From positions 27,239 to 91,238 of the forward strand of contig JAKAHD010000003.1 in assembly GCA_021815205.1 (NCBI GenBank): a DNA stretch of 64,000 nt. Direction: 5' to 3'. This DNA comes from a bacterium. GTDB lineage: Bacteria > Patescibacteriota > Minisyncoccia > UBA6257 > GWB1-50-10. Each line of letters starts with the position of its first letter. The stretch's first letter is position 1. Below are positions 4,484 through 63,748 of this stretch, piece after piece. Made by a program: the position numbers and the translations under genes. Below the pieces are notes generated by a model. That model saw nothing but the letters and a program-made list of their open reading frames with translations. It was not told where the DNA came from and did not search any database.

Positions 4484-4683
4484 AATATAACTCTATGTGA
4501 AACGAGCAGTAAGGTCAATTGATATGAGAAATTTGCCCCTACAAAGCAGAGGAATTTAAACGCTGATTTATACTGATAAGGCTGATGTGTGCCGATAACG
4601 AAGATACTTCTCCGCCGAAGGCATATCAGCATGAATCAGCTATACTCCCAAACCTAATCATGGGTGGGAGGTAAATCGGCGCC

Positions 4684-12363: not shown

Positions 12364-13384
12364 GCATGCGCCTCAACCCCTCATCCAAGGAGACTTGCGG
12401 CGCGAATCCAAACTCGTTCTTCATCTTGCTCATGTCGAGGCATACTCGCGAGGGAGCGCCGATCACGCTCGCATCTTTTCCGGGACCGGGAATTACCTCG
12501 ACGCCCATGAGCCGGCCGATTTTTTCAGCGAGCTCCCTGACACTCACGGCCTCCTCCGAGGAACCTACATTATAAATAGTTTCTTTCCCAAAGAGAAGGA
12601 TAAGGAGAAGCTCCGTGAGTACGTCCGAAATATAACAAAAGGAGCGGAGATCGCGTCCGTCGTCCATCATCTCGATTTTCTTTTTCTCGATCGCCTTTTT
12701 GAAGAATTGACTAAGCACTCTTCCGTTTGTAAAGGTGAGGCCCGGACCGTATGAGAGAGCGGGGCGAGCGATTTTCACATGAAGCCCAAAAAGGTGTTTG
12801 TAGGCGAGGCAGATTACCTCGGAAAGCCGTTTTGATTCCACATAGCACGCGCGATTATTCGTGACAGAACTGTTTCCGGGAAATGTTTCGGGTGTCGGTA
12901 TGTGCGCCTCTTCGGGAGAACCGTAAATTTCACTACTGCTCAAATACAGGATCTTCGCCGCAGGATTGTGCTTCTTTGTTGATTCGAGAATACTTTTTAT
13001 ACCGATATAATTCACGTCGATCGTGGCAACCGGATCCTCAAGGAACACGGCGGGGGTTCCGTATCCCGCGGCATGGATCATAAAGTCGTATCGTTTTTCG
13101 TACTCTATGGGAGCTGCAAGGTCGCGCACTTCATAGCGGAACCCGGGCGATTTCCTAAGCAGCCAGATAACCGAAGTTGGCGTAAGAGGACGTTTCGTAA
13201 CAAGGTCAACCTCGATGCCGTAGGAGAGCTGGGTATTAAGATAATGAAAGAGGAACGCGAAGGAGGAACCGATAAGCCCGCTTCCCCCGGCAAGAAGTAT
13301 TCGCGAGTTACGAAACGCGTTCGTATCAACCCTCCCGATTACTTCCTTGATGTCATTGTTAAATATTTCGTGTGCAGATTTCAT
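12311..13384 (-). CDS. NAD-dependent epimerase/dehydratase (SDR, UDP-glucuronate decarboxylase / dTDP-glucose dehydratase-like)
   Basis: ILLAGGSGLIGSSF Rossmann motif, YxxxK-type SDR architecture; long-ORF N-terminus trimmed to MKSAHE. Confidence 0.6.
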   Translation of the reverse strand: MKSAHEIFNNDIKEVIGRVDTNAFRNSRILLAGGSGLIGSSFAFLFHYLNTQLSYGIEVDLVTKRPLTPTSVIWLLRKSPGFRYEVRDLAAPIEYEKRYDFMIHAAGYGTPAVFLEDPVATIDVNYIGIKSILESTKKHNPAAKILYLSSSEIYGSPEEAHIPTPETFPGNSSVTNNRACYVESKRLSEVICLAYKHLFGLHVKIARPALSYGPGLTFTNGRVLSQFFKKAIEKKKIEMMDDGRDLRSFCYISDVLTELLLILLFGKETIYNVGSSEEAVSVRELAEKIGRLMGVEVIPGPGKDASVIGAPSRVCLDMSKMKNEFGFAPQVSLDEGLRRMLEWNLAFQDEKGNKSNE

Positions 13385-17550: not shown

Positions 17551-18186
17551 CTACTTCCCCGCGGGAGTCGAGGTTGCGGTGCCGTTCACAAAGGCGGCCA
17601 TGTTCTTATCGCTCGGCCAGAGGGAAATAATTTTTTCACCCACCGTCTTCGCGTCCGCGGTTTTTCCCGCATCCATATAGAGTTGGTAGAGTCCGTAGAG
17701 GAACTGCGGACGTTTCGGGCTCAAGGCAAGCCCTTTCTCATAGAGCGCGAGGGCGGCATTATAATCTTTCTCACTCCTGTAATTTCTGAAATTCACCTCG
17801 TGGATATTCGCGAGCGTCATAAGCTCCTGCGTGTAGTTCAAGCCGTATCGCCCCGGCGCATTCGCGCGGGAAATAGAATCGGCGTAGGAGACGAGCGCGT
17901 CCGCGATCGCCTGCGGCGGTTTCTGCGCGATCACGCCGCCGATCTGGTTCTCTAAGAATCGGATGTTCTCGGCCTGCCCCACGGGAGAAGAGAAGTTCAG
18001 TGCCGTATTAAAAATACGCTCGTAATCCGCGACACTCCTCGCCTGATAGGAATTGTGCATCGCCTGAATAAAAAGCTGGGCCTTGCGGAACGGGAGGAAG
18101 GAGCCGTAGATCAAGGCGAGGACGGCAAGGATAATGCCGAGAGGAGCCGCAATTGTTTTGATTATTTTTTCTAGTGTAGTGTTCAT
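17551..18186 (-). CDS. Hypothetical membrane-anchored TPR-like protein
   Basis: N-terminal TM helix, helical repeat content; no recognisable catalytic motif. Confidence 0.4.
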   Translation of the reverse strand: MNTTLEKIIKTIAAPLGIILAVLALIYGSFLPFRKAQLFIQAMHNSYQARSVADYERIFNTALNFSSPVGQAENIRFLENQIGGVIAQKPPQAIADALVSYADSISRANAPGRYGLNYTQELMTLANIHEVNFRNYRSEKDYNAALALYEKGLALSPKRPQFLYGLYQLYMDAGKTADAKTVGEKIISLWPSDKNMAAFVNGTATSTPAGK

Positions 18187-18251
18187 TTTAAATTTTACAT
18201 TCTAAATTTTAATTCAATTTTAATTTTCTAATTTTAAAAACTTTTAGTGGT

Positions 18252-18614
18252 TTAATCTTTACCATTCATCGTTCCGACAATTTTTCCGAAAATCATAGAG
18301 AGTCCTTGGGCCTCGTTCCATAAAACTTTTATCTCATCCCGCTTATCTGGGGAATGTTTTGCAAACATTCTGAGCCAATGTTTTGTTTCTTGGGCTTCTT
18401 TTTTACAAATGTGTATTTTGTTTTTGAAATCTTTCCTCGAACTCGCGCCATTTGCTTCCATATAATTTGCTCCTACGCTTGTCGCTGCACGGACGAGCTG
18501 ACTGATAAGCGGCGTTGAAATGACATCTCTCGGTATGGATTTACAAAACATAATAACATTTTCCCCAAATACAGCTGTTCTTTCTTCTAAGTTGTACGGC
18601 GCTGTTTTGTTCAT
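18252..18614 (-). CDS. Four-helix-bundle protein ('23S rRNA intervening sequence' protein family)
   Basis: LEERT--F---V---C--IP------L--QL-RA-TSVGANY-EA---SS-KDF--K---C-KEA-ET--WL pattern; flanked on both sides by AT-rich spacers. Confidence 0.75.
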   Translation of the reverse strand: MNKTAPYNLEERTAVFGENVIMFCKSIPRDVISTPLISQLVRAATSVGANYMEANGASSRKDFKNKIHICKKEAQETKHWLRMFAKHSPDKRDEIKVLWNEAQGLSMIFGKIVGTMNGKD

Positions 18615-18660
18615 TTACCAATTTAAAATTCATTTAGAACTTAAAATTTGAAACTTAAAA

Positions 18661-20124
18661 TTAATTACTTGGGATTTGGTGCTTGGAATTTGGAATTTCC
18701 AAGAAGAGGTGTGTCGCGAATGCGAGGAAAAGAAATACATTGAGATAAATCGGGAGCACGTCGAAGAGCGCGATGCCTTGCCCTAGGTACGCGACGGGAA
18801 TCGCGAGGAGCCCCGCAGTGAGCACATACCCGTACGGATGGTGGTGCGCGACGATATCCTTCCTGCGCTTCACGAACTCGACGAAGAACGTGAGGTAGAT
18901 CCCGAGGAAGGCGAGGAATCCGACGATCCCCGTTTCCGCGAGGTAGTCAAAGAAGACGCTGTGCGCCCTATCAAACCATGTTTCCGAATTCTGCCCCGGC
19001 ACGTAGTGGCGCGGGTCGAAATACTTATCGAAGACCACGCTGAAATTCTCGGGGCCCCATCCGAGGAGCGGGCGCTCTTCGAATCCCTTGATTGCGGAGC
19101 CCCACGTCCAAAATCTTGTTTGTGCGGTCTGGTCGGATATCGAGACATCAAGAAGACGGCTTGAGGATTCGCAGAAAGGCACAAGCGGAATATTATTGCT
19201 CCGGAACGCGAAGGCGAGCCCCGCGAACACGATGCTTGCGCCCGCGAGGATCGCGGAGATCTTCTTCCCCTTTCCTTTGGGAAGCGCGAATGAGAGATAC
19301 AAGAGCCCCGTGATCACCGCGAGCCCGAGCCCGAGGAAAGAACCGCGCGTCTGCGAAAGAAGGAAGAAAAAGAGATAGGCGAGCATGAGTACGATAAACC
19401 CCCACACCTTCCCGTGGGGTATTATGCCCCGCGGGGATGATTTTAAATTACCATTCATCCCTGCCGTAGAACCACTGGATACTCTGGAAGGTGGGGGGGT
19501 AAAGAGCGCGTCGCGAGTGGGATTCCGCTTTTTTGTGAACCACAACCAAAGGCCGTAAAACATCATAAACATAAGATACGGCGCGAGGTACGCGGGATTG
19601 CCGAGCGAACCCTCGAACCTGCCGCAGAGCCCCGCAGGGCCGATGAACGACCCGACCTGAAACGATGCGGCAAGGCCGTAGAGAATCACGAAGCCCGATG
19701 CGACAAGTGAGAGTTTGAAGATGTGCCTCCACTCCAACTCCGTGCGGAAGAGTAAGAGGAGAAGCGTGAAGAAAATATAGAAATGGAGAATCTGCAGCCC
19801 TCCTTCGCCGCGTTCGAAGTTCGACCAGAATGCCGCCGCGGCATCGTAGGCGAAAAGGGACGCGAGGAGCGCCGCGAGCGTAAATATCGAGACGGCGATA
19901 AAAAGCGGATGATGAAACACCTTCTTCGCGCGCGCCTTCAATGCCTCCCACTCGTGGTTATGGAAGATCACTCCCAAGAGGAACGCGATAAGCGCGAGAT
20001 CCACCGCCGCGCGGAAAAACACATACTTCCCTACGATAAAAGGAAAGAGGGTGGAATTGGTAACCAAGATCACGCAGAAGACGGAGAGGTAGAGAAGAAT
20101 GCGGGAGAGCTTGAAGTAATTCAT
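18661..20124 (-). CDS. O-antigen ligase-like membrane protein
   Basis: Multi-TM, SQTRGSFLGLGLA (Wzy_C) motif, GWGPENF motif. Confidence 0.65.
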   Translation of the reverse strand: MNYFKLSRILLYLSVFCVILVTNSTLFPFIVGKYVFFRAAVDLALIAFLLGVIFHNHEWEALKARAKKVFHHPLFIAVSIFTLAALLASLFAYDAAAAFWSNFERGEGGLQILHFYIFFTLLLLLFRTELEWRHIFKLSLVASGFVILYGLAASFQVGSFIGPAGLCGRFEGSLGNPAYLAPYLMFMMFYGLWLWFTKKRNPTRDALFTPPPSRVSSGSTAGMNGNLKSSPRGIIPHGKVWGFIVLMLAYLFFFLLSQTRGSFLGLGLAVITGLLYLSFALPKGKGKKISAILAGASIVFAGLAFAFRSNNIPLVPFCESSSRLLDVSISDQTAQTRFWTWGSAIKGFEERPLLGWGPENFSVVFDKYFDPRHYVPGQNSETWFDRAHSVFFDYLAETGIVGFLAFLGIYLTFFVEFVKRRKDIVAHHHPYGYVLTAGLLAIPVAYLGQGIALFDVLPIYLNVFLFLAFATHLFLEIPNSKHQIPSN

Positions 20125-20223
20125 TTTTTTATACGGATGACCGCTGATTGCTGGCTGATTACCGCTGATTATCTTGCGGATGACCGCTGATAAAAGCGAT
20201 AAAAGGATTATACTATAAATGAG

Positions 20224-20640
20224 ATGACAACGGGAGATGGGGAAAATAGGGTAAACGATTTCTTATATGAAGACGCTTCGTACAAATTACGCGGGTGCGT
20301 TTTTAGAGTATACAACACTTTGGGTTTTGGACATAAGGAGGGCGTGTACCAAAAAGCTCTTGCGGAAGAATTCTTAAAATCGGGTTTAACATTCGAAAGG
20401 GAAAAAACAATTCCCATAATCTATAACGGAAAACAAGTAGGGACATATCGGCCCGATTTCACTATCGAGGGCACCATCATCCTTGAAATCAAAGCGGTTG
20501 AATTTATGCCGAAAAGCTACGAAACGCAACTCGTATATTATCTTAAAGGAACAAATTATAAGCTCGGCTTCCTTGTGAATTTCGGCGCCGCAAAGCTAGA
20601 TATGAGAAGACGAGTCTATACGCCTGCCGTATCAGTGTAA
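20224..20640 (+). CDS. GxxExxY family protein (PD-(D/E)xK-like)
   Basis: RPDF-IE---ILEIKA ... YY(L)K-T-YKLGFLVNFG signature of GxxExxY family. Confidence 0.7.
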   Translation: MTTGDGENRVNDFLYEDASYKLRGCVFRVYNTLGFGHKEGVYQKALAEEFLKSGLTFEREKTIPIIYNGKQVGTYRPDFTIEGTIILEIKAVEFMPKSYETQLVYYLKGTNYKLGFLVNFGAAKLDMRRRVYTPAVSV

Positions 20641-20662
20641 ATCAGCTTGCAATCAGCGGAAA

Positions 20663-23248
20663 TCAGTTAGGAAAAACCTGAATATTGGAATTACTCCCAC
20701 TTGAAGGTGATGTCGGGGAAGGCAACTGAATCCCCAGCTGATTGAACACGGGCTCGAGCTGGGACCACATCGGGGTCGCGCGGAGATCAATTTCCTTCGC
20801 GAGCGCTTCGAAGGCGGCTTTTGCCTCCGCGTTCTTCCCCCAGAGGTAGTACGCGACCGCGATCTTCAGCCGTATCTCGTTATGTTGGTTCGCACCCTGC
20901 GCCATCGCAAGCGCCTGGGTGTAATATCCGATCGCCGCGCCGTACTTCTGCTCCTCGTCGCCGAGAATATCCCCGAGCGCGGTCGCCTCCTCCACGGAGC
21001 GCGGCACGCGCCCCAACGCCTTCGCCTTCGCGATCTCCGCGTCTCCCGTCTTCGCATCCTTCAACTGGTACGCGAGAAGCCCGAGGAAAAAGTGCGGATC
21101 GCCCGCCTCTGGATTCAGACCCACCGCCGTTTTGAAGGCGTCGTAGGCGCCCTGCGTATCCCCCTCGAGCGCCTTCGTCTTCCCGATCACGTAGTACGTC
21201 TGCTGGCGATTGGGGCTCAACTCGAGTGCTTTTACTTCGAGCTCGCTCGCCTCTTTCAGATAGTTCGGGTTGAACGTATGAAACGTGTTCTTCACTTCCG
21301 CAAGCGTATCATAAAAGAGATAGTTCTTCGGATGATCGTCGACGACCGCCTGCATTTCGTCCACGACTTTCTTCTGGAGTGTCTGTATGTTGGGAAACTG
21401 GATGCCACTCTGATATCCTTGATTGATCACGCCCTCGAAGGTGAGCCGAATGTCATCGCGATACGGTGTCGGAACCGCAAGCGCCTCCTGCGCCGCACCG
21501 AGCGACTCCGGAATCATCCGGTTCAAGTAATAATTCGGAATCCAGTACTCCCTTCCCGCGCCGTACACCATCTGCCAGTTTAGAAAGATCACGGGGATGA
21601 GAGAGAGCACGAGGAATGGATATGCGAATGGCACAGATTTCCGCTGATTCTCTTGGACGCTGATTGATGCCGATTGGGCTGATTGATGCCGATACGCCGA
21701 ATCAATGAAGGCGATCACGAGAAAGAACATGAGGTACGTGCCGATCGTGTCGAAGATTACGAGATTCCGGACGAAGTATGCCGCGAGCATACCGAGAAGA
21801 ACGATACGTAGCCGATTACCGCTGATTGTAAGCTGATTACCACTGATTCCTCCGATGCCGCGGATTTTCAGAAGCTCATAGAGGAGCGTTACCCACACGC
21901 CGAGGTAGGCGAGGAGGCCCGCGATGCCGCCCGTAATCGCGTACTCGATAAGGACATTGTGCGGCTTGTCCCAGTAGGTTTCGCCGAAGGTGTTTGTGAG
22001 CAGCGCGGGGTTGTAGTGCTTCTGGAACGCGAGATTGAAGTTCTCCCATCCGAACCCGAATACGGGATGCGCCGGGAACGATTCCGCGGCGCTCTGCCAC
22101 GCGAGGAGGCGGTTCTCGAACTCGTTCCGCACCGTCCTAAAGTTTTGAATGCGATCGAGGCCCGGCACGTGGGACCAGAAAGATGCGCTACGGGTGAAAT
22201 AAAAAATACTGCCGAGGGCAATTACAATTACCAAGACGATGAGCCAGGGATTCTTGTAGACGGATGACCGCTGATTGCTTGCTGATTGCCGCTGATTCTC
22301 CATGACGGATGACCGCTGATTGCTTGCTGATTGCCGCTGATTCTCCATGACGGATGACCGCTGATTGCTTGCTGATTGCCGCTGATTCTCCATGACGGAT
22401 GACCGCTGATTGCTAGCTGATTGATGCTGATACCGGACGGCAAGAAGAAGAATGATAAGCAATAATCCCGCGAGGAGTCCCGCGATGTCGCCGCGGGTCT
22501 GGGTTTTGAAAATTGCCACTACATCCACCAAAGAGATACAAAGGTAGAGCCACCTATCCCTCACTCTTGATACCAGTTGAGGCCTACTATTCTGGACGCT
22601 GATTGATGCTGATTGGGCTGATTGATGCTGATCCATAAAAAGATGGATCCCAATGAAGACGTTAAAGAGTAGGTAGCCCGCGAGGAAGGTGGGGTTGCCG
22701 AACGAGGAGCCGGGGCGGGCGATCCCCTGCTCCAGAAAGAGATCATTCACGAAGGGAACGAAGGAAAAAAGAGCGCCCAGGGCGGCGGCGAGACTTGTCC
22801 ACACGCTCACGCGCCACACCTTTTTCCAGTCGATCGCGTCGCCAAGCGACGAGAGCGCGAGAAAGAGGAGCGCGAAGAACCAGAGCGAGACGACTCCCAA
22901 GGTGCGCGTCTCCTGCGACCATAAGCTGTTCAAAAGATCCTCGCCGAGGAACGCGGAGATCGTGAGAACGGACATAAAGACAAGCACTCCTATGGTGAGG
23001 GGGGTGAAGCGCACCCCCACGGATGACCGCTGATTGCGTGCTGATTGCCGCTGATTGCTAGCTGATGACCGCTGATAAAAAACAAGGGCGAGCCACAAAA
23101 GGATGATGATGCCCGTGAAGGACTGGAAGAGCGCGGTCTTTACGACGATAAAGGGGTTCATCGTCCACTTCCAGAAAAAAAGCGGGACGAGGACGACCAT
23201 TGAGTAGAGGCAACCTCTGATAATTTTGAGAACTGAGTTTTCGGACAT
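20663..23248 (-). CDS. O-antigen ligase-like membrane protein with C-terminal TPR domain and internal 15-aa tandem repeats
   Basis: Multi-TM N-terminal region with GFGWENF motif; C-terminal TPR repeats; MENQRQSASNQRSSV x3 encoded by perfect 45-bp DNA repeats. Confidence 0.65.
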   Translation of the reverse strand: MSENSVLKIIRGCLYSMVVLVPLFFWKWTMNPFIVVKTALFQSFTGIIILLWLALVFYQRSSASNQRQSARNQRSSVGVRFTPLTIGVLVFMSVLTISAFLGEDLLNSLWSQETRTLGVVSLWFFALLFLALSSLGDAIDWKKVWRVSVWTSLAAALGALFSFVPFVNDLFLEQGIARPGSSFGNPTFLAGYLLFNVFIGIHLFMDQHQSAQSASISVQNSRPQLVSRVRDRWLYLCISLVDVVAIFKTQTRGDIAGLLAGLLLIILLLAVRYQHQSASNQRSSVMENQRQSASNQRSSVMENQRQSASNQRSSVMENQRQSASNQRSSVYKNPWLIVLVIVIALGSIFYFTRSASFWSHVPGLDRIQNFRTVRNEFENRLLAWQSAAESFPAHPVFGFGWENFNLAFQKHYNPALLTNTFGETYWDKPHNVLIEYAITGGIAGLLAYLGVWVTLLYELLKIRGIGGISGNQLTISGNRLRIVLLGMLAAYFVRNLVIFDTIGTYLMFFLVIAFIDSAYRHQSAQSASISVQENQRKSVPFAYPFLVLSLIPVIFLNWQMVYGAGREYWIPNYYLNRMIPESLGAAQEALAVPTPYRDDIRLTFEGVINQGYQSGIQFPNIQTLQKKVVDEMQAVVDDHPKNYLFYDTLAEVKNTFHTFNPNYLKEASELEVKALELSPNRQQTYYVIGKTKALEGDTQGAYDAFKTAVGLNPEAGDPHFFLGLLAYQLKDAKTGDAEIAKAKALGRVPRSVEEATALGDILGDEEQKYGAAIGYYTQALAMAQGANQHNEIRLKIAVAYYLWGKNAEAKAAFEALAKEIDLRATPMWSQLEPVFNQLGIQLPSPTSPSSGSNSNIQVFPN
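22261..22420 (-). repeat. Perfect 45-bp tandem repeat x3 plus partial 4th (CTGATTG-rich), in-frame in CDS
   Basis: ggatgaccgctgattgcttgctgattgccgctgattctccatgac repeated head-to-tail with 100% identity. Confidence 0.95.
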
Positions 23249-23368
23249 GAGTACAGATTAACATTGATTTCTTCTCCTGTCATTTTTGGGGACGCGGATT
23301 TATGCTGATTTCACTGATTTATGCCGATACGACATCAGCACCCATCAGCCTTATCAGCATCTATCAGC

Positions 23369-26832: not shown

Positions 26833-27625
26833 TTTCTATTTTCTGAACACTTCCCCATACTGCCATAAATTGCTCGTCCTTATGCGCCGTATGAAGATTT
26901 GTTCTTTTGTTTGTTCGACAATTTTGTTTTTCTGTTCGGTCATGGCACGTCTTTTTCCGTGCCAGCCGCCGACCTTTGGGGTTTCAGGAACGTCATGCGC
27001 CTCCCTTTTCGACCCGCGCCTTGTGAGGTTAGGTGGCGGAAGAAGAGGAGATGACGGGTAGTATCTAACTGAAATTTTTAATTCCTAATTTTTAATTTCT
27101 AAACCCGAATTAAAAACTGGGATCCTGCATAACAAAAATCTCGCTTGTGGAGCGAGATTGTAAAACTCATGAATACACAGAACACCTCCGGCAGAGACAT
27201 CCGTCGCCAAATCGAGCTATTCAGCAAGGGGTGACTCAGCCAAAGGGCCGCGTGCTTCATCAGTTTGGCCTCACTCCAAACTAATTGATGCCTTCGTCGT
27301 TATCAGTATACATCAGCTCACATCAGCACTATCAGCGTCAAGAACTCAATAGAGATGGGACGCCGATACATGGCCGATAAGGCCGATACATACTGAACTT
27401 GACAGTATGATTATACCAAATTACAGCTCTTTTCGGAAGATTGCAAGAAGATCCCTCTCTCTCGTCGTGGCGGTATACTACCTATAACGAAGATGCCCCC
27501 TCCCCGTTACGGGGGCATACAGATTTTCACAGATCTACAACAGATGCTCACGGATCACAAAATAACTACGAACCGATGTATCTGTGATCCGCGAAAATCC
27601 GCAGTCATCCGTGCCGATCTGTCGT

Positions 27626-33575: not shown

Positions 33576-35183
33576 TTATTCAAGTATTTTCTTCATCCTC
33601 TTCACCGCCTCCCTTATTTCCGCTTTCGTGGTATAGATCCCGAAACTGAAACGGACGCTTCCCCGCACGCGCTCCGAAGGGAGATGAAGCGCCTCTAACA
33701 CATGAGACGGGGCATACGATCTTGCACTACACGCGGAGCCGGAAGATGCCGCAATTCCCGCCATATCCATCTTCGTGAGCAGATCTCCCGCAAACTCCGT
33801 CGGAAAATAGACGTTCAGGATATGCGGCGCCGTATCGCTTCTTCCTTTATTCCTCCTTCCTGATTCCTGATTCCCGTTTATCGATGCCGGCGGATACACC
33901 TTCTTCAATGCTCTCCAAAAGTAATCTCTGATCTCCGTCACCCTCTTCACGTTTCTTGCGCGCTCCTTTTCCGCAAGGCGCGCCGCCTCACCGAACCCCG
34001 CGATCGCGGGCACGTTTTCCGTGCCTGAACGAAGGCCGAACTCCTGGCCGCCCCCCGTCACGAGCGGCTGCACCGCCCGCAAATCCGAATTTCGAAATCC
34101 GAAATCCGAAACCACGCTCTTCCCATTATTCTGAGTTCGCCTACCGGCGAACGAAGAATCTCCACGTAGAGATCCTTCACTCCACTCAGGATGACGTACT
34201 ACTCTCGAATTTCGTACATAGAGTGCTCCCGTTCCCTTCGGGCCGTAGATCTTCTGCGAGGAGAGCGTCATAAGGTCGACGCCGAGCTTTGCCGTATCAC
34301 AATTGAAATACTCGAATGCCTGCGCGGCATCAACGTGGAACAACGGATACGTTGTTCCAAAATCCGAATTTCGAAATCCGAAATCCGAAATACCGTTTCG
34401 TGCTTTTAATTTCGTGCTTCGAATTTGTTTCGAATTTCGTGCTTCGAATTTCGTATTTTGATAGTTGCGGATAATATCCGCAATTTGAGCGATGGGTTGT
34501 ATGGAACCAATCTCGTTATTCACGTACATCACCGACACAAGCACGGTGCGTTCATCGAGCGATGATTCGAGTTTCTTCATGTCCACAATTCCCTTCTTAT
34601 CGACGGGGAGCACCGCAATTTCCACTCCTTCTCTCTCGAGCGAGTACGCGGTGTCGAGCACGGATTCGTGTTCGATCGCCGAAACAATTATTTTAGGACG
34701 CTGATTTACGCTGATTGCTAGCTGATGACCGCTGATTTTATTTTTTATACCAGAGATCCTCCGCCTCGCGTGTTTTTCAAGGAATATCTCGGAGCTCTCA
34801 CGAGCTTGGTCTCCGAAGGAACCATGAGAGCGAGAGCGCATGACGTCTTCCGCCGCTGGAGCGGAAGAACGGCCGGTTCCGCGAGAAGCAAAAAGAGCGC
34901 TTCTCGCCACCCCGCGGAGCGCAAGGTTGTTCGCCTCGGTCGCGCCCGAGGTAAAGATCACCTCGCGGAACCTCCCGTTAATCGCCTTCGCGATCGTCTC
35001 CCGCGCCTTGTCCACTGCGCTCATCGCCTTTTGCCCGAAGGAATGCAAAGAACCAGGATTCCCGAAGTTGTCGGAAAAATACGGGAGCATTATTTTTCTC
35101 GCCTCGCTCCGCACCGGAGTCGAAGCGGCGTAGTCCAAATAAATCCTTCTCATTAAGATTGAATAACGGTAATGAGGCGGCAA
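33576..35183 (-). CDS. Cysteine desulfurase (NifS/IscS family) carrying four in-frame low-complexity insertions (true start may be 35153)
   Basis: YLDYAASTP, FTSGATEANN, PLP-lysine region SSQKIYGPKG, GGGQE-GLRSGTENV, C-terminal active-site SSGSACS; 535 aa vs about 385 typical; inserts map onto DNA repeat elements. Confidence 0.8.
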   Translation of the reverse strand: MPPHYRYSILMRRIYLDYAASTPVRSEARKIMLPYFSDNFGNPGSLHSFGQKAMSAVDKARETIAKAINGRFREVIFTSGATEANNLALRGVARSALFASRGTGRSSAPAAEDVMRSRSHGSFGDQARESSEIFLEKHARRRISGIKNKISGHQLAISVNQRPKIIVSAIEHESVLDTAYSLEREGVEIAVLPVDKKGIVDMKKLESSLDERTVLVSVMYVNNEIGSIQPIAQIADIIRNYQNTKFEARNSKQIRSTKLKARNGISDFGFRNSDFGTTYPLFHVDAAQAFEYFNCDTAKLGVDLMTLSSQKIYGPKGTGALYVRNSRVVRHPEWSEGSLRGDSSFAGRRTQNNGKSVVSDFGFRNSDLRAVQPLVTGGGQEFGLRSGTENVPAIAGFGEAARLAEKERARNVKRVTEIRDYFWRALKKVYPPASINGNQESGRRNKGRSDTAPHILNVYFPTEFAGDLLTKMDMAGIAASSGSACSARSYAPSHVLEALHLPSERVRGSVRFSFGIYTTKAEIREAVKRMKKILE

Positions 35184-59946: not shown

Positions 59947-62900
59947 CTATTGCAACTTTCTCAATCCAATCCAAATATCGGATTCGTTGATTTTTGTGTC
60001 ACACTCCGCATCGAACTTCTCGGAGCGCTTCCACTCGACCGATGCGGCATTCGTTTCTTTCTTAATAAGGGCGGTGTTCTTCTCGACGATACTCGCGAAC
60101 TCCTTGTCCCCCTCCATCATGAGCGCGATCGTGTCCTTCGGCTCAAGCCTCGCGTCCTGGCGCAATCCCTGGATCGTGCGCATAAGCTCGCGGAGCATTC
60201 CCTCTTCGCGGAGTTCGTGTGTAATCTCCGCATCGAGCACGAAGTCCTCCTTGAGATTTTTGTCGAAACTGATTGTCTTCACATTGATTTCGTCTTTGAG
60301 TATCTCCAAAAGTTCTTTCTGGCCGCTTAATTCCTGATTCCTAATTCCTAATTCCCGTAAAGGTTGTCTCACCTTTATTCCCCGTTCCGCCCGCTTCGCG
60401 AGGACCGCGCTCGCCAAGTCGCGTACTTTCGCCATATCGGTCAATAATTTTTGATTTTTGATTTTTGATTTTTGATCTACCTTCGTCCACTCCGCCATAT
60501 GCACCGAGAGCCCTTTCCCGTCGAGCGAGAGGTAGAGCGATTCGGCAAAGAAGGGGGTAAAGGGCGCCATAAGTTTCGCGGTCTCAAGAAGCGCATACCG
60601 GAGCGTCGCGGATGCCGCCGCGTAGTCCTCTTGACTTTCCGGTTTCTGGAGCCGCCGCCGCGACCGGCGGATATACCAGCGCGAGAGGTCCCCCGCAAAA
60701 TTCTCGATGTTCCGCGCCGCGGTCCCTATGTCGTAGACATTCAAACTCTTTGTCACCACATTGATCGTCTCATTGAGCCGCGCAAGGACCCATCTGTCAA
60801 GAATGTGCGAAGGTTTTAGGTTTAAGGTCTTAGGTTTTAGGTTTCTATCGGAATATGTTTCGCAGAAGACATAGGAGTGATACAAAAGTTGGAAGAACTG
60901 GCGCGAAACTTTTCCGAGATCCGCCTCATCAAACCGCTTGGGCTCGCCCGGCGGATTCACGGTGTAGCAATACCACCGGACGACATCAACGCCGTACTTC
61001 GCGATCATGTCCCACGGGCTTACGATATTCCCCTTCGACTTCGACATCTTCTGCCCGTGCTTATCGAGAATAAGCCCTAAGGCGATCACGTTCTTATAGG
61101 GTGCCTCAAGTCCCAAGAGCGTCGCGAGCGCGAGGAGCGTATAAAACCAGCCGCGCGTCTGATCAATTCCCTCGACGATATAGTCGGCGGGAAAATCGAT
61201 CTTCTTTATGAGCGCTTTGAGATTCTGCGGGGTGAGCTTTGGTGTCTTGGCAGTGAGCTTCAAATTGAACCTGAAGGGAAAGTGTTCCTGGGCGAAGGGC
61301 ATCGCACCAGAATCAAACCACACGTCCATCACTTCCGGTACTCGATGCATCGCGGTTTTGCACTTCGGGCACTCCACGGAAAATTCGTCAATGTAGGGAC
61401 GATGCAGATCAAACTCGCCCGTCTCGCTTCTCGGTACGGAACGCAGGGTGCCATACTCCACCTCGCCGTTCTTTACGTAATCCTCGCCGCGCCTATCCTT
61501 CTCGGCGACCGCGTCCGTACTCGTCCATCCCTGCATAATATGCTGGAGCATCCAGACGCACGATTCGTGCGTCACAATAAGAATCGTCTTCCCTTGATAT
61601 TTCTTCTCCATCTCACGCACAAAATCATAGAGTCGCGCGCGCAAATCGGCGAAGCTCTCCCCGTTCGGCGCCCGCTTCAGAAACTTCTCGTGGCGCGAAC
61701 CGTAGTATCCTCGGTACGCGTCATACGGCATGTCGTTGAAGTCGCCAAAATCGAACTCGCGGATACGCGCATCGAACACGATCTTCGGAAGCGAGAGCTT
61801 CTCCTTGAGCACCTCGGCGCTCTCCTTGGTGCGCGTGAGATCGGAGGCAAAAAAGAGATCAATCTTTTCCTTCTTTATTTTTCGTGCGGCGGCCTCGATC
61901 TGCGTTCTCCCCTTCAAGGTGAGGTGGTACGGCTTCTTCTCGGGCCAGCTCACGACCATATGCTTTGTATTGCTCTCCGCCTCGCCGTGGCGGATGAAGA
62001 TGTACTTGTTTGTGCTCTTCGGCGCAAGTGATTCAAGATCCTTCACGCTCCCCGGCACATGCGCCTTCCCGCACTGCTCGCACTGCCAGATCGGCAAGGG
62101 AGTGCCCCAGTACCGCTCGCGGGAAACCGCCCAATCCTTCACCTCGCGAAGCCACTCGCCGAAACGCCCGTCCTTAATTGTTTCCGGAACCCAGTTGATC
62201 TTTTTATTTGAAGCGAGGAGTTTCGAGCGAAGCGAGCTCATCGCGATAAACCACGAGTCGCGCGCATAGTAGAGGAGCGGCGTACCGCACCGCCAGCAGT
62301 ACGGGTAATCGTGCGTATATTCTTCGGTACGGAGGAAGAGGTTTTTTGACTTTAAATATTCAAATATCAGTTCCTCCGTTTCTTTGCTTTTCACGGAGCG
62401 TCCCTCAAGTTCCTTCACGTCCTTTGTAAACTTCCCTTGTTCATCCACCGTGTGGTGCTGCGGGAGACCGATTCTTTTTCCGAGATTATAATCGTCTTCT
62501 CCGTACATCACGGCGGTGTGCACGACGCCTGTGCCGTCCGTCGTCGTCACGAAATCAGCGGGATACACTTTATATGAGGTGTCGGATTTAAGCGCAGGCA
62601 CGTCGAAAAGCGGCTCGTACTCTAAACCGATCAGATCCTTTCCTTGTATCGTAGTAAGTATTTTGTATTCAGTAGTAAGCACCTTGCTCGCTAAATCTTG
62701 AGCAACAATGTAATTCTCCCCCGTATCCTTACTGCGCACTACTTGATATGTAATACTTTTCCCCACGGCGAGCGCGACATTCCCGGGAAGCGTCCACGGG
62801 GTTGTGGTCCAGGAAAGAACATAAATGTCTCCTCGAGTTTTTAGTTTCGAGTTTTTAGTTTTTAGTTTGAATTTTATATAGACTGAAGTATCCTTCACTT

Positions 62901-63501
62901 CCTTGTATCCCAACGCGAGTTCGTGCGAAGAAAGCGCGGTGCCGCATCGCGTGCACCACGGCACTACCTTATGGCCCTTGTAGAGCAGTTTCTTCTCCCA
63001 AATTTGTTTCAAAAGAAACCACACCGATTCGATGTAGTTGTTCTCATAGGTTATGTAGGGATTTTTAAGATCGAGCCAGAAGCCCATACGGCGCGTAAGA
63101 CGCTCCCACTCGTCTTTGTACTGCCAGACGGACTGTCTGCACGCCTCGTTGAACTTCGCGATACCGTACTGTTCGATCTCCTTCTTCGATTTCAGGCCGA
63201 GTTTTTTCTCGACCTCGAGCTCCACGGGAAGCCCGTGCGTATCCCACCCCGCGCGGCGCGGGACGTAGTAGCCGGACATTGATTTATAGCGAAGTATTAT
63301 GTCCTTGAAACTTCGCGAGAGTACGTGATGGATGCCGGGGCGGCCGTTTGCGGTGGGAGGTCCTTCATAAAACACGAATTTTCTTCCCCTACTCTCTCTT
63401 CGTGCGGCAAGGGATTTTTCGAATACCGAATTTTCTCGCCAAAATGAAAGTATTTTTTCTTCTATTTCGGGGAGAGAAAATTTCTCAAGTCTGCGCAACA
63501 T
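59947..63501 (-). CDS. ileS: Isoleucine--tRNA ligase with inserted histidine-phosphatase (PGM-like) domain and several micro-repeat insertions
   Basis: HIGH-region PPTANGRPGIHH, editing domain (TTPWTLPGN), KMSKS; aa about 531-735 form RHG-type phosphatase domain (IFIRHGEAESN...ILIVTHES). Confidence 0.85.
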   Translation of the reverse strand: MLRRLEKFSLPEIEEKILSFWRENSVFEKSLAARRESRGRKFVFYEGPPTANGRPGIHHVLSRSFKDIILRYKSMSGYYVPRRAGWDTHGLPVELEVEKKLGLKSKKEIEQYGIAKFNEACRQSVWQYKDEWERLTRRMGFWLDLKNPYITYENNYIESVWFLLKQIWEKKLLYKGHKVVPWCTRCGTALSSHELALGYKEVKDTSVYIKFKLKTKNSKLKTRGDIYVLSWTTTPWTLPGNVALAVGKSITYQVVRSKDTGENYIVAQDLASKVLTTEYKILTTIQGKDLIGLEYEPLFDVPALKSDTSYKVYPADFVTTTDGTGVVHTAVMYGEDDYNLGKRIGLPQHHTVDEQGKFTKDVKELEGRSVKSKETEELIFEYLKSKNLFLRTEEYTHDYPYCWRCGTPLLYYARDSWFIAMSSLRSKLLASNKKINWVPETIKDGRFGEWLREVKDWAVSRERYWGTPLPIWQCEQCGKAHVPGSVKDLESLAPKSTNKYIFIRHGEAESNTKHMVVSWPEKKPYHLTLKGRTQIEAAARKIKKEKIDLFFASDLTRTKESAEVLKEKLSLPKIVFDARIREFDFGDFNDMPYDAYRGYYGSRHEKFLKRAPNGESFADLRARLYDFVREMEKKYQGKTILIVTHESCVWMLQHIMQGWTSTDAVAEKDRRGEDYVKNGEVEYGTLRSVPRSETGEFDLHRPYIDEFSVECPKCKTAMHRVPEVMDVWFDSGAMPFAQEHFPFRFNLKLTAKTPKLTPQNLKALIKKIDFPADYIVEGIDQTRGWFYTLLALATLLGLEAPYKNVIALGLILDKHGQKMSKSKGNIVSPWDMIAKYGVDVVRWYCYTVNPPGEPKRFDEADLGKVSRQFFQLLYHSYVFCETYSDRNLKPKTLNLKPSHILDRWVLARLNETINVVTKSLNVYDIGTAARNIENFAGDLSRWYIRRSRRRLQKPESQEDYAAASATLRYALLETAKLMAPFTPFFAESLYLSLDGKGLSVHMAEWTKVDQKSKIKNQKLLTDMAKVRDLASAVLAKRAERGIKVRQPLRELGIRNQELSGQKELLEILKDEINVKTISFDKNLKEDFVLDAEITHELREEGMLRELMRTIQGLRQDARLEPKDTIALMMEGDKEFASIVEKNTALIKKETNAASVEWKRSEKFDAECDTKINESDIWIGLRKLQ

Positions 63502-63748
63502 GGTAGTTATTGTAATGGGGAAGCGGAATTTTCGCAAAACACGGACACCGAATTTTAAATATCCATCATATGAGAAAACCCACCATAATATGCGCACACA
63601 TCCGCCCCTCAAAAGTAACGATTACTAAATCAATTTAGTACAACGGAAGGAGGTCTTGCCTCAATATGATGTATTGAAGCGAGGCGTCCTGATTTTAGAG
63701 TACGTGTATCCGCGTAAATCAGTTTTAAATCCGCGGTAATCCGTTTTT

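Follow-up and report, generated by a model that had tools for sequence, protein, structure and literature searches.

A 45-bp tandem repeat in a Wzy_C/WaaL-like gene of a Patescibacteria genome, a probable in-frame amplification of a dispersed phased module

In a 64,000-nucleotide stretch of a Patescibacteriota genome (GTDB lineage Bacteria; Patescibacteriota; Minisyncoccia; UBA6257; GWB1-50-10; NCBI GenBank assembly GCA_021815205.1, contig JAKAHD010000003.1, positions 27,239 to 91,238 of the forward strand; GC content 51.7%), hereafter the window, a 45-bp sequence is repeated head to tail inside a gene for an O-antigen-ligase-like membrane protein. This raises the question of whether the repeat is a contingency locus of the cell surface, as an earlier note made from the sequence had proposed, or repeat DNA of another kind. 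The analysis points to the second answer: the repeat probably goes back to a dispersed module, one inserted copy of which was recently amplified in tandem and in frame; it is probably nearly neutral and not a programmed surface switch, and it is best filed as an in-frame dispersed-repeat insertion with tandem instability.

An exact-match search of the window located identical copies of the 45-mer starting at positions 22262, 22307 and 22352, and Tandem Repeats Finder (TRF) called the region 22259-22431 with a period of 45, 3.8 copies, 97% matches, no indels and a score of 325. By direct reading of the sequence, the perfectly periodic run covers 156 bp (22259-22414), and the fourth copy differs from the perfect units by four substitutions. 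The unit is in frame on the minus strand, the coding strand of the open reading frame (ORF) 20663-23248, and encodes the polar peptide MENQRQSASNQRSSV with a net charge of +1 per 15-aa unit. Head-to-tail units of 10-100 bp with high identity, as found here, are those of a variable-number tandem repeat (VNTR) or minisatellite. TRF also detected a sub-period of about 10 bp within the unit and similar arrays elsewhere in the window. The earlier note had described three perfect units with a diverged fourth, a unit divisible by three and in frame, and related 40-mers in the same gene at 21636-21690 and 22568-22640; exact matching, TRF and the minus-strand translation of the 861-aa ORF bear this description out, and both 40-mer sites are real. 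It missed a dispersed repeat family whose copies also lie in intergenic DNA and in a second gene, and form the arms of an adjoining GxxExxY cassette.

The number of units differs between assemblies. The 90%-identity cluster of the host protein has five members, which differ only by steps of 15 aa besides two alternative start calls; by alignment, four units are present in the window protein and P0001, three in P0087 and P0088, and two in P0085 and P0086. For comparison at the DNA level, ENA ERZ27237538 and ERZ27237587 and NCBI GCA_027423515.1 and GCA_027460785.1 were aligned with the window. No substitution was found in these four assemblies over 22.5 kb, and the sole difference was 45 or 90 bp at the repeat; the two-copy version was found in up to seven contigs. 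This strain-level comparison, an approach proposed in the earlier note, gives two, three or four units with flanks free of single-nucleotide polymorphisms (SNPs), all in short-read assemblies, and the repeat behaves like a VNTR. The three identical units, together with two to four copies and no SNPs, indicate a very recent and possibly ongoing change, in agreement with what had been concluded from the perfect identity of the units.

It is possible, but not the probable account, that these copy-number differences are an assembly artefact, in which a single allele of at least four copies was collapsed to two or three in some cases by de Bruijn assemblers. At least the ENA contigs were produced by MEGAHIT with k=141, the periodic run exceeds a 150-bp read, k-mers of up to 111 are repeated inside it, and the absence of SNPs in the flanks fits one strain sampled repeatedly. 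However, every k-mer of the four-copy allele is unique at k of at least 119, which makes correct assembly possible, and the values two, three and four recur across several independent assemblies, the two-copy version in the several contigs mentioned above; the perfect identity of the units points to a recent change regardless. Some or all of the two- and three-copy versions may nevertheless be collapsed assemblies, because the run approaches read and k-mer length, and the true copy number could exceed four.

The unit itself is part of a larger family. The module of about 40 bp carries four C-N-GAT cores (mostly CTGAT here) 10-11 bp apart, one per helical turn, and in an alignment of 13 copies the C and the GAT are invariant in all four cores, unlike the N and the spacers. 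At intervals of 9-12 bp, CTGAT/ATCAG cores form 16 clusters in the window versus 1.15 in shuffles, and 13 versus 0.005 if at least three units are counted; with the relaxed core C-N-GAT, 21 arrays of at least three phased units were found versus a mean of 0.04 in shuffles. These arrays are not due to chance, and they place the unit in a family of many loci, as is the case for mycobacterial interspersed repetitive units (MIRU). In this alignment, the 45-bp unit matches units one to four of the left cassette arm (20134) and of the array in loop 2 of the host protein (23020), and it corresponds to such a four-core arm plus 8 nt. It is a copy of the genome-dispersed module and no private minisatellite. 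The module is present in the genome in three forms, namely as inverted arms of the cassette, as ORF-less hairpins of arm plus arm, and as single arms in coding sequence. A scan of genome contigs (596 Gb) with the 16-mer GATGACCGCTGATTGC gave only scattered single matches in unrelated taxa, as chance predicts. A CRISPR-like or iteron/plasmid origin of the arrays was rejected, with no spacers, a chromosomal housekeeping context and synteny with relatives that is kept.

Single arms were found in frame in two intact ORFs of the window, with five arrays in the Wzy_C-TPR host gene and one in an Aminotran_5 gene (Table 1), while homologues have no insert at these positions. These genes hold one arm orientation only, and no whole palindromic element is found inside a gene. 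Since the loop-2 array and the Aminotran_5 array share CGCTGATTGCTAGCTGATGACCGCTGAT, they are related by descent and do not have an independent origin by slippage. In each of the six intragenic arrays, ATCAG is on the coding strand. This is accounted for by the TGA in CTGAT, which a repeat of 10-11 bp brings into every reading frame in turn; with ATCAG, translation gives NQR, IS(G) and SA, polar sequences without a stop codon. A count of 194 versus 5 for the two orientations inside long open frames of metagenome loci was not used as evidence, as it is largely tautological because TGA closes frames.

The host protein was assigned by several methods. Pfam PF04932 (Wzy_C) matches aa 241-449 with 41.6 bits (cut-off 31.7), the match being stretched to 209 residues for a model of 149 positions because the repeat interrupts the domain, and weak TPR matches are present at the C-terminus. 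The homologue profile matches the WaaL O-antigen ligase structure 7tpg (E 2.6e-6). An AlphaFold model built from 47 homologues (predicted local distance difference test, pLDDT, 88.7; predicted template modelling score, pTM, 0.87) was aligned by Foldseek to 7tpg_B with a target-normalised TM-score of 0.64, and R178, R380 and D427-K428-P429-H430 are invariant in the 47 homologues. Labels found among the homologues of the protein are Wolfebacteria, Parcubacteria, Jorgensenbacteria and Paceibacterota, which places the organism in the Patescibacteria. From the family and structure matches and the modelled WaaL-like fold, the protein is predicted to be a member of the Wzy_C/WaaL-type O-antigen ligase family, with putative glycan ligase or polymerase activity, and the earlier description of it as an O-antigen-ligase/TPR membrane protein stands.

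Hydropathy analysis gave 13 transmembrane (TM) segments. In four insertion-free homologues (P0006, P0007, P0013 and P0016), the short loops carry 17-20 lysine and arginine residues on the 'in' side versus 5-6 on the 'out' side, and the 84-residue loop with the invariant D427-K428-P429-H430 is placed on the 'out' side. In WaaL, the counterpart of this conserved catalytic loop is periplasmic. Based on the TM count, the positive-inside rule and the position of the catalytic loop on the opposite side, loop 8 with the repeat (aa 273-332) is predicted to be cytoplasmic, and the same prediction is obtained for all five repeat-bearing loops (2, 6, 8, 10 and 12). Among 46 homologues, loop 8 has a median length of 12 aa and a maximum of 35 aa, compared with 60 aa in the window protein. 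The cytoplasmic loops 2, 6, 8, 10 and 12 vary in length in these homologues with a standard deviation (sd) of 3.3-7.2; four of the six extracytoplasmic loops are fixed or near-fixed (sd 0-0.9), the other two having an sd of 1.3 and 3.5. The array-bearing loops measure 21-60 aa in the window protein versus only 7-13 aa in insertion-free homologues, which marks the in-gene arrays as insertions. A variable exposed loop would be expected outside the TM helices and outside the cell: the repeat does lie outside the helices, but in a predicted cytoplasmic loop that is short in most relatives, so that the exposed length-variable loop and contingency locus of the earlier note are not sustained.

For the origin of the repeat, the following steps can be proposed. 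A single module arm would have been inserted, or copied by recombination, into the DNA for cytoplasmic loop 8. With 8 further nucleotides this arm would form the 45-bp unit, and slipped-strand mispairing or unequal exchange between units would shift the copy number in frame; units could be gained and lost without a frame break because 45 bp is a multiple of three. The outcome would be two to four copies, possibly more, in an otherwise clonal population. Single arms would persist in genes only with ATCAG on the coding strand, and only where an extra polar, Arg-rich peptide is harmless, as may be the case in the short cytoplasmic loops of the Wzy_C/WaaL-like domain. Changes in the length of loop 8 most likely have almost no effect on the enzyme, and the added peptide is probably tolerated without serving a purpose. 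These data are best read as selfish or neutral repeat DNA that is accommodated by permissive loops on the cytoplasmic side.

Table 1. Coordinates of the host gene, the C-N-GAT arrays and the GxxExxY cassette in the window
Feature	Position	Strand	Basis or remark
Host gene, 861 aa: Wzy_C/WaaL-like membrane domain (13 predicted TM segments) and C-terminal TPR domain	20663..23248	-	Pfam, profile, structure model
45-bp tandem repeat, 3 perfect units and diverged 4th, encodes (MENQRQSASNQRSSV)n	22259..22431	-	aa 273-332 (predicted cytoplasmic loop 8); 2, 3 or 4 units depending on the assembly
In-frame C-N-GAT array, 6 units, predicted cytoplasmic loop 2	23020..23076	-	about 85% identical by eye to cassette left arm
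In-frame array, 4 units, predicted cytoplasmic loop 6, GGACGCTGATTGATGC subtype	22599..22632	-	sequence reading, cluster scan
In-frame array, 6 units, predicted cytoplasmic loop 10, different reading frame (GISGNQLTISGNRLR)	21812..21865	-	sequence reading, cluster scan
In-frame array, predicted cytoplasmic loop 12, near-copy of loop-6 array	21643..21693	-	sequence reading, cluster scan
Module in frame in Aminotran_5 (cysteine desulfurase-like) gene, stretch CGCTGATTGCTAGCTGATGACCGCTGAT common with loop-2 array	34701..34736	-	alignment
Left arm of GxxExxY cassette, 6 phased C-N-GAT units; last unit overlaps -35-like hexamer	20134..20191	+	cluster scan
GxxExxY/PDDEXK_3 gene, 138 aa, fills intergenic space directly 3' of host gene	20224..20640	+	TIGR04256, PF13366; missing at syntenic site of L124, L126
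Right arm of GxxExxY cassette, 4 inverted units (ATCAG), overlaps stop codons of both flanking genes	20631..20666	-	cluster scan
Inverted pair of arrays (4+4 units), ORF-less, 5' region of host gene	23295..23367		minus-strand RNA -31.6 kcal/mol, z -5.8
Inverted pair CTGAT/ATCAG, ORF-less hairpin	4563..4639		z -5.3
Inverted pair ATCAG x4 / CCGAT x3, ORF-less	27302..27387		minus-strand RNA -46.8 kcal/mol, z -7.5
Inverted pair CACAGAT/ATCCGTG subtype, ORF-less, same core as arrays of relative L128	27520..27621		sequence reading, folding

The cassette next to the host gene has a size of about 530 bp, with two inverted arms around the GxxExxY gene. The encoded protein matches TIGR04256 with 121.4 bits (cut-off 35) and PF13366 with 120 bits (cut-off 22), and hundreds of relatives of this family were obtained by protein search. 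In a superfamily survey, the function of PDDEXK_3 is given as 'Unknown' (PMC3424549). Four loci were chosen by protein similarity alone (P0121, P0144, P0153 and P0180; 58-66% identity; 4.4 kb each), and all four have one upstream array and one inverted array directly after the stop codon, with none elsewhere in the 4.4 kb, where 0.01 would be expected per locus. A metagenome scan for three phased units gave at least 120 loci with a GC content from 29% to 73%. Among the metagenome matches listed, five GxxExxY genes occur in four loci: L195 and L144 carry both arms around the gene, L144 also has a second GxxExxY gene that lacks arms, L232 seems to be the reverse complement of L144, and in L234 a phased CGGAT array upstream is paired with just one ATCCG unit downstream. 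Neither the GxxExxY protein nor a neighbouring four-helix-bundle protein was matched to a defence system by PADLOC, and no transposase-like Pfam match was found among the genes listed around the locus, no search aimed at transposases of the RAYT (REP-associated tyrosine transposase) type having been made.

Most contigs with close GxxExxY homologues (P0090-P0208) are only 0.5-2 kb long, which would be expected if repeat arms break short-read assemblies. Distant homologues with 41-48% identity are found on viral IMG/VR contigs (L256 1370-1930 and L258 1380-1930), flanked by repeats with a 9-bp period (GGTTCATCY; TTTCATTTG); their layout of a hairpin upstream and a direct copy downstream is unlike the inverted-arm design, and the repeat sequence is also different. 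Very dense CTGAT decamer arrays, nearly all on one strand and with up to 21 clusters in 10 kb, are carried by three high-GC (64-67%) metagenome contigs, L206 (10.4 kb), L231 (6.7 kb) and L212 (5.9 kb).

The two nearest relatives, L124 (59% protein identity) and L126 (56%), keep the gene order, lack the GxxExxY gene and have no C-N-GAT array in 22 kb. With regard to a transposon or miniature inverted-repeat transposable element (MITE), inverted multi-site arms were observed in the window and the cassette is absent at the syntenic intergenic site of these two relatives, whose flanking protein, 56-59% identical, is too diverged for junctions or target duplications to be read. In L128 (P0002, 63% identity), CACAGAT/ATCTGTG arrays are located in the loops, and a CACAGAT arm right after the stop codon is followed by MSDTFLYK, resembling the N-terminus of a GxxExxY protein (2758-2832). 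In-gene arrays are found alongside a nearby cassette in two lineages, but a cassette alone does not suffice. The GxxExxY gene directly follows the Wzy_C-TPR gene in three further lineages (L249 1-2411, L253/L254 1-2393 and L128), and in L249/L250 and L253/L254 it also adjoins the large gene (PG_binding_1 match in L254) found beside the host gene in the window. Such recurrent adjacency suggests a preferred insertion site or a functional link. At the intergenic position taken by the cassette in the window, L124 has two CCAATTT-type phased arrays in inverted orientation without an ORF (12533-12624).

Several points weigh against an unstable, nearly neutral insertion that spread from the cassette. 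The first 30 or so residues of the repeat are modelled by AlphaFold as a confident helical extension of TM8 (pLDDT 87-91), and given this model a structural role of the loop-8 repeat is conceivable. The 156-bp run is near read and k-mer length, at the resolution limit of 150-bp reads, and the neutrality of loop length is something that we infer. The relatives without C-N-GAT arrays hold another repeat, GGAGGCCCGGCCTCC, in the same cytoplasmic loops, so that the permissiveness of the loops may outweigh the neighbouring cassette. L249 and L253 have a cassette beside the Wzy_C-TPR gene, yet no arrays of at least three units are present in the part of the gene covered, and the direction of spread from cassette to gene is deduced from co-occurrence in only four related genomes. 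The repeat GGAGGCCCGGCCTCC is a GC-rich palindrome that occurs in pairs in P0003 and is read as GGPAS or EAGPP depending on the strand (L124 10640-10677, 10844-10879 and 11471-11509).

A wider proposal is tentative and, on balance, doubtful. GxxExxY/PDDEXK_3 genes might be the cargo of an undescribed selfish cassette, whose arms of 3-6 C-N-GAT sites would be recognised by the PD-(D/E)XK protein in a homing- or transposition-like process; the ORF-less pairs would then represent empty or decayed sites, single arms would have spread to nearby genes, and the VNTR would be collateral damage.

About 2 kb from the cassette, a gene of 120 aa (18252-18614, minus strand) encodes the four-helix-bundle protein, annotated TIGR02436/PF05635 '23S rRNA IVS protein'. 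It is flanked by AT-rich phased arrays of the AAATTTTA type at 18184-18238 and 18610-18700, is missing at the syntenic site in L124 and L126, and seems to form another cassette built on the same plan, with arms of a different kind. A second Wzy_C protein has its last 13 residues (LEIPNSKHQIPSN) encoded by a GGAATTTGGAATTTCCAAG-type repeat (18661-18700) that resembles the CCAATTT arrays of L124, and this array appears to provide the C-terminus and the stop codon of the second Wzy_C gene.

The arrays could also be protein-binding sites, possibly for the GxxExxY protein, occupied cooperatively once per helical turn; the role of arrays inside genes would be to adjust transcription, to serve as roadblocks or to label targets of the nuclease, the peptide being a by-product. 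The strict phasing of 10-11 bp and the invariant C and GAT next to variable spacers and N argue for this, as do the -10-like box that the arms abut upstream of every GxxExxY ORF examined and the position of 8 of about 11 CTGAT-type loci within 3.3 kb around the cassette. Moreover, the N of C-N-GAT varies (T, G or A), and in L253 and L255 it does so without co-variation of the two arms, which speaks for recognition by a protein more than for base pairing. The explanation is nevertheless unlikely, since such binding is putative and read from sequence, promoter-like matches near the cassette are no commoner than in shuffles, and the arrays sit exactly in permissive loops, which points to coding constraint and not to positional regulation.

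Quite unlikely is a role of the arms as RNA, in which inverted arms would pair into stems, comparable to intervening sequences of rRNA, and be processed or stabilise transcripts, while AUCAG inside the host gene could pair with CUGAU of its 5' region and modulate translation or decay. Each of the four ORF-less inverted pairs has a folding energy well below that of shuffles (z -5.3 to -7.5, minus strand), and folding is consistently better for minus- than for plus-strand RNA (-31.6 vs -22.6, -32.6 vs -28.8, -46.8 vs -30.9 and -47.3 vs -29.3 kcal/mol), the minus strand being the transcribed strand of the adjoining genes; G-U pairs would give this advantage. In addition, the GxxExxY gene and the PF05635 four-helix-bundle gene both lie between inverted arrays here. 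However, the strand asymmetry may simply reflect C/T transitions, the five assemblies are identical and thus offer no compensatory variation, and the arms of L253 and L255 show the lack of co-variation noted above. In Rfam, no known family matched the region 17.5-28 kb when E values of up to 1 were admitted, the only hit being Trp_leader below threshold.

An adaptive contingency locus, in which slippage would alter the length of a loop that a surface-glycan enzyme exposes, and thereby diversify the surface or evade recognition by phage or host, is very unlikely: the unit is perfect and in frame in a Wzy_C-family gene and its copy number differs among otherwise identical assemblies, but the loop is predicted to be cytoplasmic from TM count, positive-inside rule and placement of the catalytic loop, a 45-bp unit permits no frameshift switch, and the copies between genes and in the Aminotran_5 gene are not explained by surface variation.

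The preferred explanation, an amplified insertion of a dispersed module, can be compared with known repeat systems. Rickettsia palindromic elements (RPE) were reportedly described by Ogata et al. in 2000 as selfish repeats in frame in protein-coding genes. As in that case, the family discussed here occurs both between genes and in frame, is inserted where homologues lack the segment, and leaves the host proteins intact. RPEs are, however, palindromes of 100-150 bp inserted whole, whereas here an array of about 40 bp with four phased C-N-GAT sites is found as a single arm per gene, tandem amplification has affected one copy, and a GxxExxY cassette is linked with the family. Mycobacterial MIRU-type VNTRs have dispersed units of 40-100 bp with a variable tandem copy number. 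The likeness lies in a dispersed unit of tens of bp, arranged head to tail, of ORF-compatible length and differing in copy number between near-identical genomes; MIRUs are found mainly between operon genes, whereas the present repeat is inside a membrane-protein gene and has a sub-periodicity of 10-11 bp.

Simple-sequence contingency loci of Neisseria, Haemophilus and Campylobacter have units of 1-8 bp that shift the reading frame or promoter spacing, or vary exposed epitopes. The present repeat shares with them its position in a surface-glycan biosynthesis gene and a copy number that differs between near-identical (short-read) assemblies. It does not belong to this class, since its 45-bp in-frame unit, in a predicted cytoplasmic loop, provides neither an on/off switch nor an exposed epitope.

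The ORF-less pairs, as small dispersed hairpin elements between genes, resemble repetitive extragenic palindromic (REP) sequences and bacterial interspersed mosaic elements (BIME), enterobacterial repetitive intergenic consensus (ERIC) sequences and Correia elements, but their arms consist of phased decamers and not of a single imperfect palindrome, and the associated gene encodes the PD-(D/E)XK protein GxxExxY. With the intervening sequences of 23S rRNA, from which PF05635 has its name, the locus shares a small ORF between inverted repeats, here for GxxExxY and for the four-helix-bundle protein; unlike these, it lies outside rRNA, its arms are phased arrays of short repeats, and lone arms occur inside protein-coding genes. 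Iteron- and parC-type direct repeats of 10-11 bp are similar in that four to six sites follow each other at intervals of one helical turn and two sets face each other across a promoter-like region, but no plasmid or partition context is present here and the binding protein is only putative.

Two further genes of the window contain short repeats. The Aminotran_5 ORF (535 aa, 33576-35183, minus strand) matches the Pfam model in four separate stretches, and its interruptions comprise arrays of a 7-bp unit at 33849, 34081 and 34356, a 14-bp unit at 34396 and the CTGAT module at 34701. An IleRS-like class-I tRNA synthetase ORF (1221 aa, 59947-63612, minus strand) has a complete His_Phos_1 domain (aa 538-696) between its catalytic halves and holds perfect or near-perfect heptamer arrays at 60328, 60447, 60811 and 62836.

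Seen in isolation, this is an ordinary in-frame VNTR that carries a caution, as a perfect repeat in a glycan enzyme mimics a surface contingency locus while the predicted topology puts it inside the cell. No published description of the phased C-N-GAT architecture or of its tie to GxxExxY genes was found in the literature searched, and none of the arrays or the cassette in the literature on GxxExxY, PDDEXK_3, TIGR04256, PF05635 and tandem repeats of the candidate phyla radiation (CPR). Genomes of this Patescibacteria lineage let short phased modules invade permissive loops of essential proteins, as is also the case for Aminotran_5, with the IleRS-like ORF holding short tandem arrays. Such invasion inflates protein length and can break short-read assemblies. 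As the module is a conserved flank of GxxExxY/PDDEXK_3 genes in all four loci chosen by similarity, it is a candidate DNA or RNA partner for this family.

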